Source of the DNA: a virus | Taxonomy: Duplodnaviria; Heunggongvirae; Uroviricota; Caudoviricetes | Strand: one strand, 5' to 3' | DNA length: 64,000 nucleotides | IMG/VR virus record: IMGVR_UViG_2700989400_000004 | Span: 1-64,000 of that record | In this document: in pieces, positions 5,458 through 57,635 of the stretch | How the letters are laid out: each line of letters begins with the position of its first letter | Position numbering within the stretch: position 1 is the first letter of the stretch | Translations under genes and position numbers: made by a program | The notes under the pieces: generated by a model | What the model was told of the DNA's origin: nothing | The model's database searches: none | The model's input: only the letters and a program-made list of their open reading frames with translations

Positions 5458-7590
5458 CTATTCGTCTTCTGCCTGATCAATCAGCACGATAAATCGCTGC
5501 TGTGTTCCGTTAATCTTCACTGTTTTCGATGTCCAGCGACCAGGTTCTGCACAAACCAGCATTCCGGCTTCTTCCAGCGCCTGACACCCAAAGTTCCTGG
5601 ATATACCGCATAAAATTTCGCTATCAAACACTGACGGGATAATGTGATATTCGGGTTTTCCATCCTCACGCTTACCGCTGACAAGATAGCCTGCAAGATT
5701 GCTTATACGGGATGCATAGTGGTTATCCATATCCCCATTGCTTTTCCCGTAGGTATAAGGCTGAAAACGACTCAGGGCATGGCGCTGAATAAAGTCACGG
5801 GCGCGACTGATGACCTGATATTTTTCCCGGTTTTCCAGCCCGAAATCCTGTAGCCAGTCATCAAAAGCCCGTTGCGTTGCTTCCCGGCATTCTTCAGCTG
5901 TCCAGCCAGTAATTGCGGTGGCAAGCTCTCCGGCTGCATCCAGCATGGCGAATCGCGATGCCACTCGCCTTACCTGTGACGAGGCATTTTCAGGCAGATT
6001 TCCCAGCCAGGCATTTTCTTTATCTGAAGTGGTGTTGATAGCCAGCTCCTTGTGAGCGGATAACCAGCGCACCCACTCACGTCCCGCAGCGCCACAATAA
6101 TTTGATGAAAGTCGCTTTATGGCCCTGGCATGTTGATCACCATCGTCATAACCGTTAAACACCGTTGTATCGGTAAAGGGAATGCTTAGCAGTCGCACCA
6201 GTTGCCCTGCCTTTGGGGCAATTCCCCCTTTTAACAGGAAGGTTTCAAAATCTTCTTCTCCGGTGCTTAGTGCCGCTATTTTCCAGCGCATTACCGCACG
6301 ATTACCGCCGTCCTTGCGCCCCTGAATCCTGCCCACACCGTTAAACAGGCTGTAGGCGGATTGCGCAATGTCATTAACCCTTCCTCCCTGACCAATTTCA
6401 TCAATAGGGATAAAACCGTCATTACGTGCAGCTGCTTCCACTGTCAGCCCGTGCCGGGTGGCATCCCACGAGAGTTTAAGCATTTCAGGGTCGCCATAAA
6501 GGCTGGTGGCGGCCTCCACAGTCGTGGTTTTCCCCGCTGACGACTGCGCGAAAAGATGAATACCAAAACAACTACCACCCACAAGGGAATTTAGCGGGGC
6601 TGCCAGCCCGACCAGCACCCCAAGCATCATTGAGTGATTGCCACGCATCAGAGAAGCAACATTATTTCGCCATTCATGCACCGTGCCCCTGACAATATAG
6701 CCTTTGATGGCGGCAGATCCGCCGCAGAATGCTACGGGACGGTCAGGCACACCAATCACCTCGCCATCAGGCATAACATAGGCTCCACAATGCCAACCTG
6801 CTGTTGATGTGACCTCCCACACCGTGCGATCTCCATGACGTTGCAGGTATTCCGCCAGTTTGTTCAGTAAATGGGCACTGGTAGTGATTGCAACTCCCCG
6901 CCCACGTAATCGCGCCCATCCTGCGGGCATACCGATTTCATTGCGCGGCATCGCTTCGTAAATAATTTTTTGTGTCCCTTCCGGGATCATTTCAATGATC
7001 AGATACGCTTCCCTTCCGTCGTTACCAATACCTGCCGTGCGCATCCGGTCACTCAGCCAGGTTTCTTTATAATTCATCTCCTCTGCCCTGGTGTTGGGGA
7101 TTGGCTCGATATACCAGAGCGCCCCGTCTTTTTCGGTAATATGCGGTTTCATGGGGTCTGTTTTACCGGGTGATCCACCAGCTATTCCGATTCCTTCAGG
7201 AATGGTTTCCCCGCGCTCTGTCTGTTCGCGGATCCGTTGCAGGTAGTCGCGCCAGTTCTCCGGCTCCCGGTCGGTGATGCCTTTGTATAATTTCGCATCC
7301 TGTACGCCAGCCAGCGCCAGCTTTTCAGCGATAGCATTGATCTGGATTGGCTCTATCTCCCCCGCGATATAAACACGCGCAAAGCGGCGCTCATCGTCGA
7401 TAATGCGGATATTAGCCAGATCTGCCAGTTGCGTTGGCCCCAGGTAAACAGGTGGCACGTTATCGCCGTGTTTTCGTCCTTCGCTTTCAATCCAGTGTTG
7501 AGCATGGGCGTAAGCATCCGTCCCGGCAAAAATGATTACCTCGGTGAATTTATCCTTTGGCTGATATTTTAAATTCGGTGCGTTTTTCAC
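5458..7590 (-). CDS. primase/helicase replication protein (Toprim plus NTPase, P4 alpha-like)
   Basis: 710 aa; Walker A-like AQSSAGKTT; domain order typical of satellite primase-helicases. Confidence 0.8.
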   Translation of the reverse strand: MKNAPNLKYQPKDKFTEVIIFAGTDAYAHAQHWIESEGRKHGDNVPPVYLGPTQLADLANIRIIDDERRFARVYIAGEIEPIQINAIAEKLALAGVQDAKLYKGITDREPENWRDYLQRIREQTERGETIPEGIGIAGGSPGKTDPMKPHITEKDGALWYIEPIPNTRAEEMNYKETWLSDRMRTAGIGNDGREAYLIIEMIPEGTQKIIYEAMPRNEIGMPAGWARLRGRGVAITTSAHLLNKLAEYLQRHGDRTVWEVTSTAGWHCGAYVMPDGEVIGVPDRPVAFCGGSAAIKGYIVRGTVHEWRNNVASLMRGNHSMMLGVLVGLAAPLNSLVGGSCFGIHLFAQSSAGKTTTVEAATSLYGDPEMLKLSWDATRHGLTVEAAARNDGFIPIDEIGQGGRVNDIAQSAYSLFNGVGRIQGRKDGGNRAVMRWKIAALSTGEEDFETFLLKGGIAPKAGQLVRLLSIPFTDTTVFNGYDDGDQHARAIKRLSSNYCGAAGREWVRWLSAHKELAINTTSDKENAWLGNLPENASSQVRRVASRFAMLDAAGELATAITGWTAEECREATQRAFDDWLQDFGLENREKYQVISRARDFIQRHALSRFQPYTYGKSNGDMDNHYASRISNLAGYLVSGKREDGKPEYHIIPSVFDSEILCGISRNFGCQALEEAGMLVCAEPGRWTSKTVKINGTQQRFIVLIDQAEDE

Positions 7591-7877
7591 TTCTTACCTC
7601 CCGCAACCAACATTGCCCGGATTTTTTTAATATTCGAGGCTGCACGTCTTGCCACCGCCAATTGTTTGTTTTCCACCAGAATAAAATCACGCTCAAACTG
7701 ACGGCGCGGCATTACGCAGTCATATTCGTAAGCCTCACGGCGGTAGGTGATATTGCCTGGCGTAACGTGACGAATAACCACTCGTCCCCCACGTCTGGTG
7801 TCGCGGTAAATATCGCCAGAGCGAATTGCAGACCGAGAGAGGCCGCTGGCAGTAAAGCCAGAATTTTTCTTTTTCAT
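7587..7877 (-). CDS. hypothetical basic protein
   Basis: 96 aa ORF in operon with 4-nt overlaps. Confidence 0.4.
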   Translation of the reverse strand: MKKKNSGFTASGLSRSAIRSGDIYRDTRRGGRVVIRHVTPGNITYRREAYEYDCVMPRRQFERDFILVENKQLAVARRAASNIKKIRAMLVAGGKK

Positions 7878-8988: not shown

Positions 8989-9294
8989 ATGGCAACAGGA
9001 AACATCAACAGCAGATCGCAAATGAAAAATATCCGCTTCCCCCATGATGTAATCGAGGAAATGGAAAATTCGAAAACGGAAGGGGAAACAATAGCCGCTT
9101 TCGTGATTACAGCCGTTCGCGGTGAAATCGCCCGCCGCCAGGCAGAAGGAAGCGGAGAAAATCCCCTGGTTTCTTCGCTCGATGCACTGGCGCAGGTGGA
9201 AAAAATCGGTGTCAAAGCAGCCGAGGAGATCGGGCAACTCGTCACCGTCGCGCGTGAAGAACTCCAGCGGCGCAAGGCCAAAGAACAGGAGTAA
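8989..9294 (+). CDS. putative Arc/Mnt-like ribbon-helix-helix regulator
   Basis: KNIRFPHDVIEEMEN...AAFVITAVRGEIARR resembles the Arc repressor fold pattern; conflicts with a long open frame on the opposite strand. Confidence 0.35.
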   Translation: MATGNINSRSQMKNIRFPHDVIEEMENSKTEGETIAAFVITAVRGEIARRQAEGSGENPLVSSLDALAQVEKIGVKAAEEIGQLVTVAREELQRRKAKEQE

Positions 9295-10011
9295 CCATCA
9301 CCAGCGCCGTGGTGTGAGGAACTACGGTGCATCGTTTTACAGGGCAGCGCCATGACCAACAAAGAATCAACCAATACACCATCACCGGCACGGAAAAGAC
9401 AGCGCAGAAAGATAGCGTACGAGCATGAGTCAGACAGATTCGCGCCCTGTGCGTTTATCCTTGAGAAATTCCTTAAAGAGTACAGGCGCACAAAAATGGG
9501 GTCGCATACCTGGAAAACATCGCGGCATGGCGATGTTAAAGAGCAGGAATAGCCCACCAGCAAGCCAGCATATTCACCATAATGACCCTCAGTTAAACCT
9601 AGAGTCATTGGTGCAAAGCTGACACATTGCCCACCAGCCGCAAATGTGGCATTGTTGGTGATGCGTTCAAGTATGTAGCTTTTCCACTGGCGGCTCTCTG
9701 CGGTCGCCTTTGTTTTATCCAGAACGAAATCAGACATCAGATTGATCAGCACCTGGCGACCTGACAAAATCGCATCAGTCGCGCCACCAGCAGTATTTTT
9801 TGCTTTCCGGACAGCTTGGCCAACTGCATTTTGCAGCAAAATATTCTGCATTTCTGGCTTACTGTGATAACAGTGATCAGCGCCTTCACTCTGTACGACC
9901 ACAACGCTATAATCTGCCTCGTAGACAGTAAGCAATATGGCGCAGTAAGCGACTTGTTCACAAAGGCGCTCCGGCAACGGGGCGCTTTTTCTTTTTGTAA
10001 CGGTCAGAGCA

Positions 10012-53436: not shown

Positions 53437-53790
53437 AAAATCCACCCCAATTATTTTCGATTTTCGATTTCGTTCGGCTTTGCGGCGGCTCCGGCCCTTA
53501 GCCAATGATCTACGCATTTGTTGCACTCGTTACAGTCTCCTTTGTTTGGGTTACACAAATTGCACATTGCCCGCATTACGCATTCGCGCTCGTAGTCGTC
53601 ATGCCACGCATACCTGTCATCGTTCATAATTTGATCTCCTTCTGTTAGGCGATGTGTTTCCGCATTTCAGCGGGGCCGGATTTTTAAAGAGCATTTCGTT
53701 TGATTGCAGTATACAAAATGGATGCACCTGGACAAAGTAAAAAGCGCCATTATGTGACGCTAATCACACAATGACGCCATTTTGTAAACT

Positions 53791-54555
53791 TTAGTCCGGT
53801 AAAACGCGGTTAAGCGTCGTCCGCGTGATGGCCCGGTCGTTAGCCAGGAATACAGCACGGGCGAAGCCGCGCGGCGTTAGTGAGCGGATCATCTTAGTGC
53901 GCTTCGACTTTCCGCCTAACTTCGCGTGCTGCTTACTGTCTTCCCATTCATCCGGCATTGGTACAGGCCGGAATAGCGGCTGCTTAAATCCATTCCCACA
54001 CCAAATACATGTTTTCTTCGTGTAGGCGTCGCGGGCGGCGATGTATTCCGGGAAAGCGGGATGTTTATCATCTTCCGGCAGGTAGCCACCATAAGCGCAC
54101 GGATTGAAGATAAAATCCGGTTTACGCCATAACGTTGATAGTGCGCCTACCGGATTTTCTACCATCCACGGCACGTTATACATATTCGCCAGTTTTTCTA
54201 CCAGTTTTGCGTTATGCGCCGCCTTCACCTGGAAGTCAGGGTCTTTTTTCCGTTTATCAGCGAACCAGCGAGCGCCTGAAACGGCGAGATTGTCGCATGG
54301 AGGAAAGCCCAGGATAATGTCAGGATCTGGATATACAGACAATTCAGGGGAGAACATTACCAGGAAATGGCTATCAATCCAGACATTGACATATTCAATA
54401 TTGGGATGAATTATTTTTACCCCGTCATAATCCCCGTGATTAGCGCCGTCATAGTTGAAGCAATAACATTTATAACCAGCGTCCGCCCAATCTTTAACGG
54501 CGTACCCGCTGCCGTCATATAGCGACCACACCACCCAATTTCTAAGCCCGCTCAT
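53791..54555 (-). CDS. putative DNA (cytosine-5)-methyltransferase-like protein
   Basis: Motif I-like SLYDGSGYA, motif IV-like GFPPCDNLAVSG, motif VI-like MVENPVG; short (254 aa). Confidence 0.5.
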   Translation of the reverse strand: MSGLRNWVVWSLYDGSGYAVKDWADAGYKCYCFNYDGANHGDYDGVKIIHPNIEYVNVWIDSHFLVMFSPELSVYPDPDIILGFPPCDNLAVSGARWFADKRKKDPDFQVKAAHNAKLVEKLANMYNVPWMVENPVGALSTLWRKPDFIFNPCAYGGYLPEDDKHPAFPEYIAARDAYTKKTCIWCGNGFKQPLFRPVPMPDEWEDSKQHAKLGGKSKRTKMIRSLTPRGFARAVFLANDRAITRTTLNRVLPD

Positions 54556-55055
54556 TTTCTACCCTCAAACGTGAAATAGCGGCGCATGATGATAGTAATC
54601 ACCGTTACCGCTGCCATTTTTGAGATAAATTGCATAGCTGATATTTCCGGCATAAATGCCATAAACGATAGCGTTGGGAAAATTAACGCATCACCTATGG
54701 CGGACGCTATATTTGCAGGCCATCGTTTTGAATCAAAGTCACCAGGCAAAACCCGGTAAACGCCGCCAGAAATAAGCGCACCGGAAACAACCGCGACAAA
54801 TGACGCGATCGCCACCATTCCGGCATCGTAATTTATCAGCACAGTGATTGCGCCAGCGGCGGCGCATGTTGTAGCCGACCATTTCAGGCCGCCGTCATAT
54901 AACAGGAAGTCACGGATCATCATATTGACACACACAGCGGCTACCGTGGTGATCGGAATTACCCACGGGCCGCAATGGTTAACAATAAGATTGATGATCA
55001 CGAAAACGGCGACATAAACGCAGGCTAATAACCTGTCAATTGTCACCCTTTCCAT
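54552..55055 (-). CDS. integral membrane protein (possible VUT/YhhQ-like fold, weak)
   Basis: About 167 aa, multiple hydrophobic helices. Confidence 0.4.
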   Translation of the reverse strand: MERVTIDRLLACVYVAVFVIINLIVNHCGPWVIPITTVAAVCVNMMIRDFLLYDGGLKWSATTCAAAGAITVLINYDAGMVAIASFVAVVSGALISGGVYRVLPGDFDSKRWPANIASAIGDALIFPTLSFMAFMPEISAMQFISKMAAVTVITIIMRRYFTFEGRK

Positions 55056-55557
55056 TTTTATGATACCCCGCCGCGCGTAATAGTGATTCGTTGTCAAACT
55101 TCACATCAAGCCGATTAATAATCTCACCACCGTTAAACATCACAGTTGGGATTGTCCCTGGTGCAATAGATGGCTCTGGTCCAGCAAGATCAGCAAAAGT
55201 TTTCTTCAATCCACCGATAGGGAGATCAAAAACGCCCTGTTTTTTCTTTTGTTCTTCCTCCCGCTCCGTTAATATTTGCTCCGCTTTTAGCGCGTTGTAG
55301 CTAATCAAATCAATTAGCGTGTCTGTCGGATCGCTATTATTGCTCAAAATAGCTTCTAATCGCGCCTCCTTGAGACAAATTAGTAGATCCCATACATCAA
55401 GCGGGGTTAAATTTGCCCCCTTCTTAGCGTTGTAAATAGCGGCTATTTTTGGCGCTGATTTTTCCTCTTTTTTGTCGTATCCGTTTTGCTTACCTCTTTG
55501 CTCTATGGTTTCCGCCGCAAGTCTCAATAAATCTGTTGCCTTAGTCATTATTTGCAC
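55036..55557 (-). CDS. hypothetical protein
   Basis: 173 aa between Dam and membrane protein. Confidence 0.4.
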   Translation of the reverse strand: MQIMTKATDLLRLAAETIEQRGKQNGYDKKEEKSAPKIAAIYNAKKGANLTPLDVWDLLICLKEARLEAILSNNSDPTDTLIDLISYNALKAEQILTEREEEQKKKQGVFDLPIGGLKKTFADLAGPEPSIAPGTIPTVMFNGGEIINRLDVKFDNESLLRAAGYHKNGKGDN

Positions 55558-56029
55558 CTCTTGCGTATAGCTCTTTACGTGTTATCTGCGTGAAAATACA
55601 TTCATGTTTGCACCGTGGATGCCAGATCAAGAACAAGCTCCCTTTATTGTTTCCGCTTGCTGGCTTACCCGTCGCAGCATTAATAAACGCCAGCCGCCCG
55701 CGCGTGATTAAGCGACATTCGCTTGCCGTCTCCAGGCCGTTCATAAACCAGTTAACAGAGATATCAGCGGGCAACAACATTACACAGCCAATATGATTTC
55801 GGTGATGTTCCATCGCTGCCTTATCTACGAATGGCCCCGGATTCGAATATGGCGGATTAAGCCAGACATATTCACCAGGCATTGCTACCGCTCCCCACGG
55901 ATAATGGAGTGTGTCCATCTCTTCGGTTATATATCGCGGAACTAATGCGTTTGCCTTGTTTGCCGCCACATCCGCGACGAATTCGAATTCACGGTCCATT
56001 CCTCTAAAACGGGTTTTGGCGTTTGCCAT
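55541..56029 (-). CDS. phage-type DNA N-6-adenine methyltransferase (Dam family)
   Basis: VWLNPPYS catalytic motif and GCVMLLPADISVNWF...GRLAF. Confidence 0.7.
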   Translation of the reverse strand: MANAKTRFRGMDREFEFVADVAANKANALVPRYITEEMDTLHYPWGAVAMPGEYVWLNPPYSNPGPFVDKAAMEHHRNHIGCVMLLPADISVNWFMNGLETASECRLITRGRLAFINAATGKPASGNNKGSLFLIWHPRCKHECIFTQITRKELYARGANND

Positions 56030-56088
56030 AAGTCCTTTATTTCTTTTGGCGTATGGCTTCCGCCGTAATCATTTTTCATTACGCCCCC

Positions 56089-56436
56089 TTAGAAATAATC
56101 CTGATCTGCTCCCCAGCGGTTATTCAGATATCCCACCAACCACACAAAACGCTCAATACTGATTAGCGGGGCGACCTTGCGATAATGCTTATCTAATATC
56201 AGCCGCGTGGCTTTATCGCTATATCCGTTTCTTTCTACCTCTGCTTTGCAGGCAGAAAGCGCCGCGCGTGCGGCAGTTTTTACGGCGTTGAATTGCGGCT
56301 CTGACAGGTTGAATAAAGCCATATAATCACCACGGATCATCTCAATAAGTCGAGGCCACCCAGAAAAAACCCACGAAAACACTAAAAGCGAATAGCACGC
56401 GTATACCCAAAAGCAATTCCGCCCACGACTGAACAT
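56089..56436 (-). CDS. hypothetical protein
   Basis: ORF in early leftward operon; start uncertain. Confidence 0.3.
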   Translation of the reverse strand: MFSRGRNCFWVYACYSLLVFSWVFSGWPRLIEMIRGDYMALFNLSEPQFNAVKTAARAALSACKAEVERNGYSDKATRLILDKHYRKVAPLISIERFVWLVGYLNNRWGADQDYF

Positions 56437-57058: not shown

Positions 57059-57545
57059 TTACCTCCCGTGGTTTTCATGATACCCGTACTCGATTTCAGC
57101 TTTACGCCTCGCTTCGATCGCTTCATCTATGCTATCTGAGTAGCATAGATATTTTTTCTTTCCGTCAACGGTAATATAAGATCTCCATTTCTGAGTTAAT
57201 TTATCCCAATAAACACCCGTGCATCCAGAAGTGTTATTTTTCTGCTTAGCTCTATTCTTTGCGTTTTCCTGTCTCGTCACTATTCGAAGGTTATCAAGCC
57301 TATTATTAAGGCGATTATGTCTATATGGTCTATTTGATAGCCTTCCGGGATTGGGCCGTTGTGCATCTCCCATATTATCCTGTGAACGCAATACCTTTTC
57401 CCGCAAAACATAAACCCCTGTACCCACCCTCATACAGAGTACTCCCTGCTACGTCTCCGGCTTTAACCCTGAAACCAGTAGGTTTCTTCCAAATTAGATT
57501 GACTCCGTCGTAATAAAACCACTCTCGCCAGTCAATAGCGTCCAT
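57059..57545 (-). pseudogene. HNH homing endonuclease (HNH plus AP2-like domain) disrupted by two frameshifts
   Basis: Frame 1 MDAIDW...GYRGLCFAGK; frame 3 RYCVHRIIWEMHNGPIPEGYQIDHID; frame 2 NRLNNRLDNLRIVTRQEN...GVYWDK...EEAIEARRKAEIEYG; shifts near GGAAAAGG and GACATAATC. Confidence 0.6.
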
Positions 57546-57635
57546 TGTGTTTTCCCTCTTCCCAAGCGAAATACCCGACAAAACCAACCAGAACAATCAA
57601 CCAGCAAGCCAGGATTAAATCAATCAGCCACATGA

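Follow-up and report, generated by a model that had tools for sequence, protein, structure and literature searches.

We examined a 64,000-nucleotide (nt) stretch of viral DNA (IMG/VR record IMGVR_UViG_2700989400_000004, positions 1 to 64,000; hereafter the window) in which four overlapping genes lie on the minus strand at 53791-56079. They encode, in this order, a T1-type N6-adenine methyltransferase (Dam), a DUF6378 protein, a polytopic membrane protein and a minimal C5-cytosine methyltransferase-like protein. Homolog profiles and predicted fold place the membrane protein, as a short member, in the VUT/YhhQ/QPTR family of queuosine-precursor transporters (PF02592, COG1738). In other phages the gene for such a protein (VUT) nearly always abuts a gene for DpdA, a DNA-guanine transglycosylase, and no such gene is detectable here. 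The explanation we favour, with about even confidence, is that the block belongs to a delayed-early accessory operon of independently mobile genes, in which orphan methylases stand beside an orphan QPTR-type importer.

The four collinear minus-strand open reading frames (ORFs) that a preliminary description had placed at 53791-56029 are all present and mutually overlapping, in a co-transcribed arrangement. The Dam stop overlaps the DUF6378 start by 8 nt, the DUF6378 and membrane-protein genes overlap by 20 nt, and the VUT stop overlaps the start of the methylase-like gene by 4 nt. All four are genuine genes, each with many homologs and with ratios of nonsynonymous to synonymous substitution (dN/dS) of 0.03-0.35 against the phages mEp021 and MagusPhagus. 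The element that carries them is a temperate phage of the mEp021 group (mEpimmI), integrated as an E. coli prophage. The region shares 84-91% nucleotide identity with Escherichia phage MagusPhagus and six mEp phages, prophage matches to it were found in 35 of 5426 complete E. coli genomes, and a 247-kb E. coli contig in NCBI carries the exact window proteins. Moreover, the mEp021 record annotates gp30 as a putative N6-adenine methyltransferase, gp31 as a hypothetical protein, gp32 as a putative membrane protein with 6 transmembrane segments and gp33 as a putative cytosine methyltransferase, in the same order as in the window and with predicted terminators bracketing gp30-33. Genes gp29-gp33 of mEp021 (MH706966), like those of the mEpimmI phage group (PMC11893012), correspond to the window in content, order and flanks, with Ipe upstream and a terminator followed by NinF/NinG/RusA/Q genes downstream. 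The mEp021 VUT protein is 98% identical to that of the window; the two elements differ in that Dam is frameshifted in the window. For its lineage the block is therefore not unusual, since it recurs in mEp021, MagusPhagus, other mEpimmI records and the 35 E. coli genomes. It is a recurrent, already annotated piece of a known temperate phage group, and is routine phage accessory content already in GenBank. In published mEpimmI annotations the transporter goes under 'putative membrane protein' or 'hypothetical protein', without a link to the QPTR family; for this phage group, described as gut-prevalent, the name QPTR/YhhQ-family transporter homolog can now be given.

The gene for this short transporter homolog occupies 54552-55055 (minus strand), and its assignment was reached by transitive homology and predicted fold. 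The start is probably ATG 55055, giving the 167 amino acids (aa) that are the length of its homologs, and not TTG 55097. The membrane protein alone gives no Pfam match at E≤0.01 and no NCBIfam match at E≤1, and matches PHROG 4899, a family of unknown function. An exhaustive phmmer search against 1.84 billion representatives returned 145 homologs, and 69 of the 72 that were aligned match Pfam Vut_1 (PF02592), the best at E=5e-15. When the homolog profile was compared by hhalign with gp41 of phage CAjan, a 'putative preQ0 transporter', it aligned over the full length at 97.7%, and it aligned with E. coli K-12 YhhQ (RefSeq) over 143 columns at 93.5% (E=2.4e-7). The polytopic character proposed in the preliminary description was confirmed: the AlphaFold model (pLDDT, the predicted local confidence, 94.7) is all-helical and adopts the fold of an ECF S component, whilst a model from the single sequence (pLDDT 44.9) was unusable. 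The window protein retains the family-invariant residues N22, G29, R48, D49, S85, N115, D122, F126, F131, Q142 and K146. Nothing suggests a sensing function, which had also been proposed. However, the suspected link between the membrane protein and DNA modification proved well founded, in that it belongs to a family whose genes adjoin DpdA in other phages.

Purifying selection acts strongly on the VUT gene. Against mEp021 and MagusPhagus its dN/dS is 0.03, lower than that of the other three genes, with dS up to 0.28. The exact protein was found on 209 contigs, and its 90% cluster holds 723 member sequences. An intact ORF is kept at 96-99% amino-acid identity in the mEp-group phage records and at 54% in a more diverged relative, L004.

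Outside this group, VUT and DpdA are tightly paired. Of the 21 VUT records that a tblastn search of 50,697 phage records yielded, seven belong to the mEp group and the remaining 14 show 28-35% identity. A DpdA-like gene of 243-275 aa directly abuts VUT in all eight of the other isolate lineages fetched, namely Peatvirus PEAT2, Obolenskvirus AB3P2, the Drexlerviridae Opt-719, LHE71 and Phc, and the phages RCIP0319, Tbat1_6 and ECO111 5-P. The VUT neighbour is labelled 'queuine tRNA-ribosyltransferase' in two of these eight records, and the DpdA-like family matches CAjan DpdA at E=1e-5. The VUT proteins of these two-gene cassettes are 28-35% identical to the window protein, equal to it in length, and encoded by genes that overlap the neighbouring enzyme gene just as in the window. 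However, the partner is a 243-275-aa DpdA-like transglycosylase in the cassette phages and a C5-methylase-like gene in the window. The same pairing dominates in IMG/VR, where VUT loci were gathered with a 12-sequence alignment: a DpdA-like ORF abuts the VUT ORF in 33 of 39 loci, and these 39 include DUF6378 in none, the short methylase in one and Dam in one. Up to three of the six exceptions offer possible leads: in L038 and L056 a DpdA-like DSGAF/DTGAF motif occurs in an adjacent ORF, and in L064 a neighbour resembles QueC/PAPS reductase.

The DpdA-like genes lie at 4549-5292 in L019, 5492-6319 in L021, 5464-6285 in L022, 5474-6301 in L023, 5507-6247 in L024 and about 5456-6256 in L025. These short genes (243-275 aa), from several Drexlerviridae and other siphophages, are annotated only as 'hypothetical protein' and fall below detection by the Pfam TGT domain. 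With VUT they form a minimal transporter-plus-transglycosylase cassette, and no preQ0 synthesis genes were found in the 8-10-kb regions fetched. In the IMG/VR contig L028 (5986-7841) VUT is followed by an ORF that runs from stop to stop over 6324-7841 and has matches to the DpdA-like family (2e-90) as well as to T1-type Dam (3e-56); it represents either a fusion of DpdA and Dam or two neighbouring genes that share a frame.

In the window and its closest relatives the transglycosylase could not be detected. Four DpdA queries run in tblastn produced nothing above noise. A DpdA hidden Markov model (HMM) built from seven short DpdA proteins and run with --max had no match in the window, in positions 1-53205 of the 54396 bp of MagusPhagus, in the mEp021 block or in L004. 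As a control, the same model recovered a DpdA fragment in L008, beside a 35%-identical VUT, at E=4.7e-49. No TGT domain was seen in Pfam scans of seven MagusPhagus ORFs (six of them >180 aa) and of three ORFs of the window, and the MagusPhagus annotation lists no DpdA. Genes for preQ0 synthesis likewise went undetected in the 64-kb window and in 98% of MagusPhagus, and the annotations of MagusPhagus and of the fetched mEp021 region list none. DpdA is also absent from the 46%-identical VUT lineage, which is carried by a temperate element (L005-L007); the neighbours of its VUT in L005 include none of the other three block genes, with no match to DUF6378. The tightly selected VUT of the mEp group is thus an exception to a strong rule of VUT-DpdA pairing, and in the literature we found no paper on a DpdA-less phage VUT.

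Two better known relatives help to frame what such a protein might do. E. coli YhhQ (QPTR, COG1738/PF02592), an importer of preQ0 and preQ1, belongs to the same family, but it is 221 aa long with longer loops, whereas the window protein has 167 aa and on its own falls below the Pfam threshold. Within the QPTR family, E. coli YhhQ imports preQ0/preQ1 whilst a Chlamydia protein imports queuine, and substrate shifts are documented (PMC11130926). The second relative is CAjan gp41, the YhhQ/QPTR 'preQ0 transporter' of the Queuovirinae (PMC7544227, PMC6884629), which like the window protein is a short (159 aa) VUT protein. However, it lies within a folE-queD-queC-queE-dpdA cluster whilst the window is without such genes, and no pairwise BLASTP similarity between the two proteins is detectable. 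Deletion of yhhQ in CAjan left DNA modification unchanged, and Hutinet et al. noted that phage YhhQ homologs track no particular phage group (PMC7544227, PMC6884629).

Under the explanation that we favour, the region would be the distal part of a delayed-early, N-antiterminated operon of an mEpimmI phage, running in the order Ipe, Dam, DUF6378, VUT/QPTR-type transporter, minimal C5 methylase, terminator with nutR2, NinF, NinG, RusA and Q. Both methylases would be orphan enzymes that act on phage DNA during lytic replication and blunt host restriction, Dam methylating adenine at GATC-type sites and the 254-aa enzyme methylating C5 of cytosine. By analogy with its relatives, the membrane protein would be a small secondary transporter that brings in a 7-deazaguanine-type base such as preQ0, preQ1 or queuine. 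As there is no phage transglycosylase, the imported base could feed only host enzymes (Tgt, and so queuosine in tRNA) or serve another use; by default we take it to be the host Tgt/queuosine-tRNA route. The four genes would then be independently mobile accessory genes on one transcript and not the parts of an obligate four-part machine. Each of the four occurs elsewhere without the others, no DpdA or preQ0-synthesis gene was detected, and the DNA-modification or anti-restriction module proposed in the preliminary description is not supported. The short methylase lies beside a VUT gene in none of the four other carriers examined (HK578, LHE71, Phc and IMG/VR locus L046), and HK578 gp26 and gp28 do not match VUT. 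The phage mEp021, growing on E. coli K-12, offers a cultivable case in which to ask what a phage gains by importing a queuosine precursor that it cannot insert into its DNA.

Several observations weigh against this explanation. The His/Asn/Asp/Tyr codons of the prophage are not enriched in NAU (fraction 0.52 versus 0.59 in the flanking 20 kb), which gives no support for a role in tuning queuosine tRNA. E. coli already possesses YhhQ and a de novo preQ0 pathway, so that an extra importer would bring no obvious benefit. The window protein also differs from its family at less conserved VUT positions (D44N, H52L, D96S and W55G), so its substrate may differ. Furthermore, L004 retains the whole four-gene block at 54-65% amino-acid identity, and with the start-to-stop overlaps this amounts to more conservation than pure hitch-hiking predicts. 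Lastly, the short C5 methylase, a PF05869 Dam and DUF6378 recur together, without VUT, within ~3 kb in the virulent Dhillonvirus HK578 (L015 1683-4543) and in genes 57-61 of Faecalibacterium phage FP01, a Firmicute phage (PMC13432834). This recurring trio may reflect only shared residence in replication and early modules.

The main rival is that in this lineage the transporter homolog lost its DpdA partner and was re-purposed, either for a different substrate, such as another vitamin-like compound, or for a role other than transport, such as membrane-acting host takeover or exclusion. We consider this possible, but clearly the less probable account. It draws on the break in the pairing, in that the VUT clade at ≥46% identity (the window, P0009 and P0134) is DpdA-less in every contig seen whilst the next clade (≤35% identity) has an adjoining DpdA. 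The substitutions at otherwise conserved positions, the failure of Vut_1 to reach E≤0.01 on the window protein itself and the substrate shifts known within QPTR (PMC11130926) point the same way. However, the window protein keeps every residue that the 72 aligned homologs share invariantly or at ≥94%, the confidently predicted fold is that of a complete S-component-like transporter, and the very low dN/dS indicates that the ancestral architecture is being maintained.

The conservation of the block could instead mean that it is one integrated DNA-modification or anti-restriction system, in which the transporter supplies an external base or cofactor that the methylase-like enzyme and/or DUF6378 would install in phage DNA or use on it, independently of DpdA. 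Beyond the tight overlaps and the synteny kept in L004, such a system would make sense of the slot next to VUT, which elsewhere holds the DNA-base-modifying DpdA (33 of 39 viral contigs, 8 of 8 lineages) and here holds a C5-methylase-like gene with a 4-nt overlap. It would also fit the L028 locus, where VUT adjoins a single stop-to-stop ORF matching DpdA and T1-type Dam, and the recurrence of the methylase/Dam/DUF6378 trio in unrelated phages. Even so we think it improbable. The methylase-like protein keeps canonical C5-methyltransferase catalytic motifs, its 2351-member family occurs without VUT in the other phages examined, and C5-methylase chemistry exchanges no bases. Sensitive searches detect no transglycosylase, DUF6378 has no detectable similarity to any enzyme, Dam is so dispensable that at least 18 contigs have it frameshifted, and we see no positive biochemical logic that would join the parts. 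A related reading, about equally improbable, is that the DpdA-less VUT clade of temperate enterobacterial phages (the mEpimmI group and relatives) was recruited to a new transglycosylase-independent pathway, in which an imported 7-deazaguanine-like base or cofactor would serve, with the adjacent C5-methylase-like protein and/or DUF6378, to modify phage DNA or host tRNA. This reading arises from the strong purifying selection on VUT, its translational coupling to the methylase-like gene and the break in an otherwise near-universal pairing with DpdA.

The methylase-like gene itself lies at 53791-54555 (minus strand), encodes 254 aa and was identified by its match to phrog_757 (E=5e-88) and by its motifs. 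The family (PHROG 757) comprises 2351 homologs, all of them short phage proteins. In an alignment of 21 sequences the motif IV residues P85, P86 and C87 (FPPC) are invariant, as is motif VI, E133-N134-P135-V136. The PC and ENV motifs by which the gene had been called C5-methylase-like thus hold up as far as FPPC with its invariant Cys87, but the second is ENPV and not ENV. By inspection, without a structure, motif I reads (Y/F)DGSG in the family and DGSG in the window, with G15 and S16 invariant and G17 ≥90% conserved, and motif IX/X reads RSLTPRGFARAV..AN in the window, with IRSLTPRGFA.AV..AN invariant or nearly so in the family. The window protein has no match to PF00145 at E≤1, although eight of the 21 aligned family members do match it (best E=1.3e-6). 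The family profile weakly matches DNMT3B and M.HaeIII over motifs I-IV (E=0.16-0.5), and an hhalign comparison with the single sequence of E. coli Dcm, which is insensitive, aligned motif IV only (1.2% probability). A single-sequence PDB search with the protein returned nothing meaningful. The dN/dS of the gene is 0.04-0.08. Taken together, the motifs and profile matches are enough to call the protein a divergent minimal C5 methylase, with putative activity. It shares 54-65% identity and all invariant motif residues with minimal phage C5-cytosine methyltransferases (phrog_757) such as HK578 gp32, but has a C-terminal extension of 20-25 aa relative to the 227-231-aa core members. Minimal phage C5 methyltransferases are abundant in Drexlerviridae and Dhillonvirus (PMC8594841).

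The second methylase gene is disrupted. It occupies 55541-56079 (minus strand) and matches the T1-type phage Dam family PF05869 at E=1.7e-41 (142 bits, cutoff 28.1) and TIGR01712 at 110.4 bits (cutoff 97.05), with the NPPY catalytic motif present. The Dam-type call of the preliminary description therefore stands, but the 162-aa ORF on which it was made (55541-56029) is a frameshift artefact of a 178-aa gene. Alignment to MagusPhagus and mEp021 shows a 1-nt deletion: the window has four residues in the T run at 56006-56009 where both phages have five. The true start is ATG 56079 and the frame breaks after codon 24. The N-terminal 'DLWQTP' segment (conserved DxWxTP) ends up in a separate 45-aa ORF (55942-56079), and the 162-aa ORF is the downstream part of Dam with its first eight residues out of frame; intact homologs have 178 aa. 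Compared with the T1-type family, then, the window protein scores above both curated cutoffs and keeps NPPY, but is parted from its DxWxTP segment. At least 18 contigs, drawn from independent data sets, carry the 162-aa form when a diverged allele (MADAETCF...) is counted in; the frameshift is therefore probably real and not a one-off sequencing error. From the broken frame, the Dam of this prophage is probably inactive. Orphan methylase genes in a prophage were thus correctly predicted, and there are two of them, although as a pair they are compromised here by the frameshift in one. Other members of the Dam cluster (P0396, P0405 and P0408) show N-terminal fusions or rearrangements, and disruption seems to strike the N-terminal end of Dam repeatedly in these prophages. 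Such recurrence is a warning against presuming that the 'orphan methylases' of prophages are active.

A further lesion lies 1 kb upstream, where an HNH_3 homing-endonuclease gene (57059-57596, minus strand) is split over three frames by at least two frameshifts and is a pseudogene. HNH_3 profile positions 2-25 fall in the ORF at 57280-57411 and positions 26-45 in the ORF at 57059-57433. The gene is apparently missing at this place in MagusPhagus and mEp021, on a comparison of annotations. Its splitting over three frames indicates that this copy of the prophage is accumulating lesions. With the frameshifted Dam and the missing DpdA, this might suggest that the block and its transporter gene no longer have a function and are the remains, in decay, of an ancestral VUT-DpdA(-Dam) cassette. 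We regard this as the least probable of the readings considered: the VUT gene evolves under the tightest constraint of the four (dN/dS 0.03 at dS up to 0.28), its ORF is intact in the mEp-group records (96-99% amino-acid identity) and even in L004 (54%), and its 90% cluster has 723 members.

The remaining gene of the block, at 55036-55548 on the minus strand, had been described as encoding a 173-aa unknown. The protein has 170 aa, starting at ATG 55548, and belongs to a named family of unknown function, DUF6378 (PF19905, E=2e-7). The PF19905 match covers residues 10-93 at 31.6-33.5 bits (cutoff 27.1). In alignment, an N-terminal domain of ~98 aa is conserved; a C-terminal tail of ~70 aa is variable and missing in L004. 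Its dN/dS against mEp021 and MagusPhagus is 0.25-0.35. A total of 215 phage records contain DUF6378, and in Dhillonvirus, for instance, there is no VUT gene with it. A single-sequence PDB search with the protein gave nothing meaningful (for this protein and the methylase-like one alike, such searches returned only Kirbac noise), and the DUF6378 profile gave nothing credible. No relationship was found with a protein annotated as DUF550 in Tbat1_6, a family of MazG-like pyrophosphohydrolases, or with the CAjan cluster proteins gp39 and gp40, and our literature search found no paper on the function of DUF6378.

Through PHROGs the name 'phosphofructokinase' (PHROG 474/1167) is widely annotated on DUF6378-containing phage proteins, and nothing that we saw supports it. 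A Klebsiella phage example of 192 aa (L013 5701-6279) consists only of the DUF6378 domain and an unassigned N-terminal half. We also considered whether a Klebsiella phage 'phosphofructokinase'/DUF6378 gene at ~31 kb belongs to the Queuovirinae deazaguanine cluster, and rejected this; it adjoins dUTPase and head genes.

Long forms of the transporter also exist, with lengths of 230-340 aa in 27 of the 145 VUT representatives, among them P0149, P0160, P0165, P0173, P0174, P0190, P0218, P0228, P0257 and P0264. Nine of the ten long proteins scanned have a C-terminal extension of ~130-180 aa after Vut_1 that has no Pfam match, and P0149 has DUF5020. None of the ten matches the DpdA-like HMM.

The flanks of the block carry recognisable transcription signals. 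Directly after the methylase stop, a strong intrinsic-terminator-like hairpin at 53743-53778 (minus strand) has a 16-bp stem followed by a T run, and corresponds to TERM_4/t4 of mEp021. Downstream of it, at about 53659-53672 on the same strand, lies a boxB-like hairpin, CCGCTGAAATGCGG (CCGC-TGAAAT-GCGG). This is where, in mEpimmI phages, a third, extra nut site, nutR2, has been placed, just downstream of the methylase gene (PMC11893012). The NinF-like, NinG, RusA and Q genes follow downstream of the terminator hairpin. An internal promoter scan of the block found nothing that exceeds shuffled expectation. Directly upstream of Dam, in the same transcription unit, is an Ipe homolog at 56089-56322 (minus strand), 91% identical to mEp021 Ipe; the real gene encodes 77 aa, and the program-made ORF over it 115 aa. 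In mEp021, Ipe is the 'inducer of pleiotropic effects', linked to the haemolytic phenotype of lysogens (PMC11893012). In L004 a Lar-type restriction-alleviation gene (9188-9415) lies just after Q, placing a further anti-restriction function in the same operon region.

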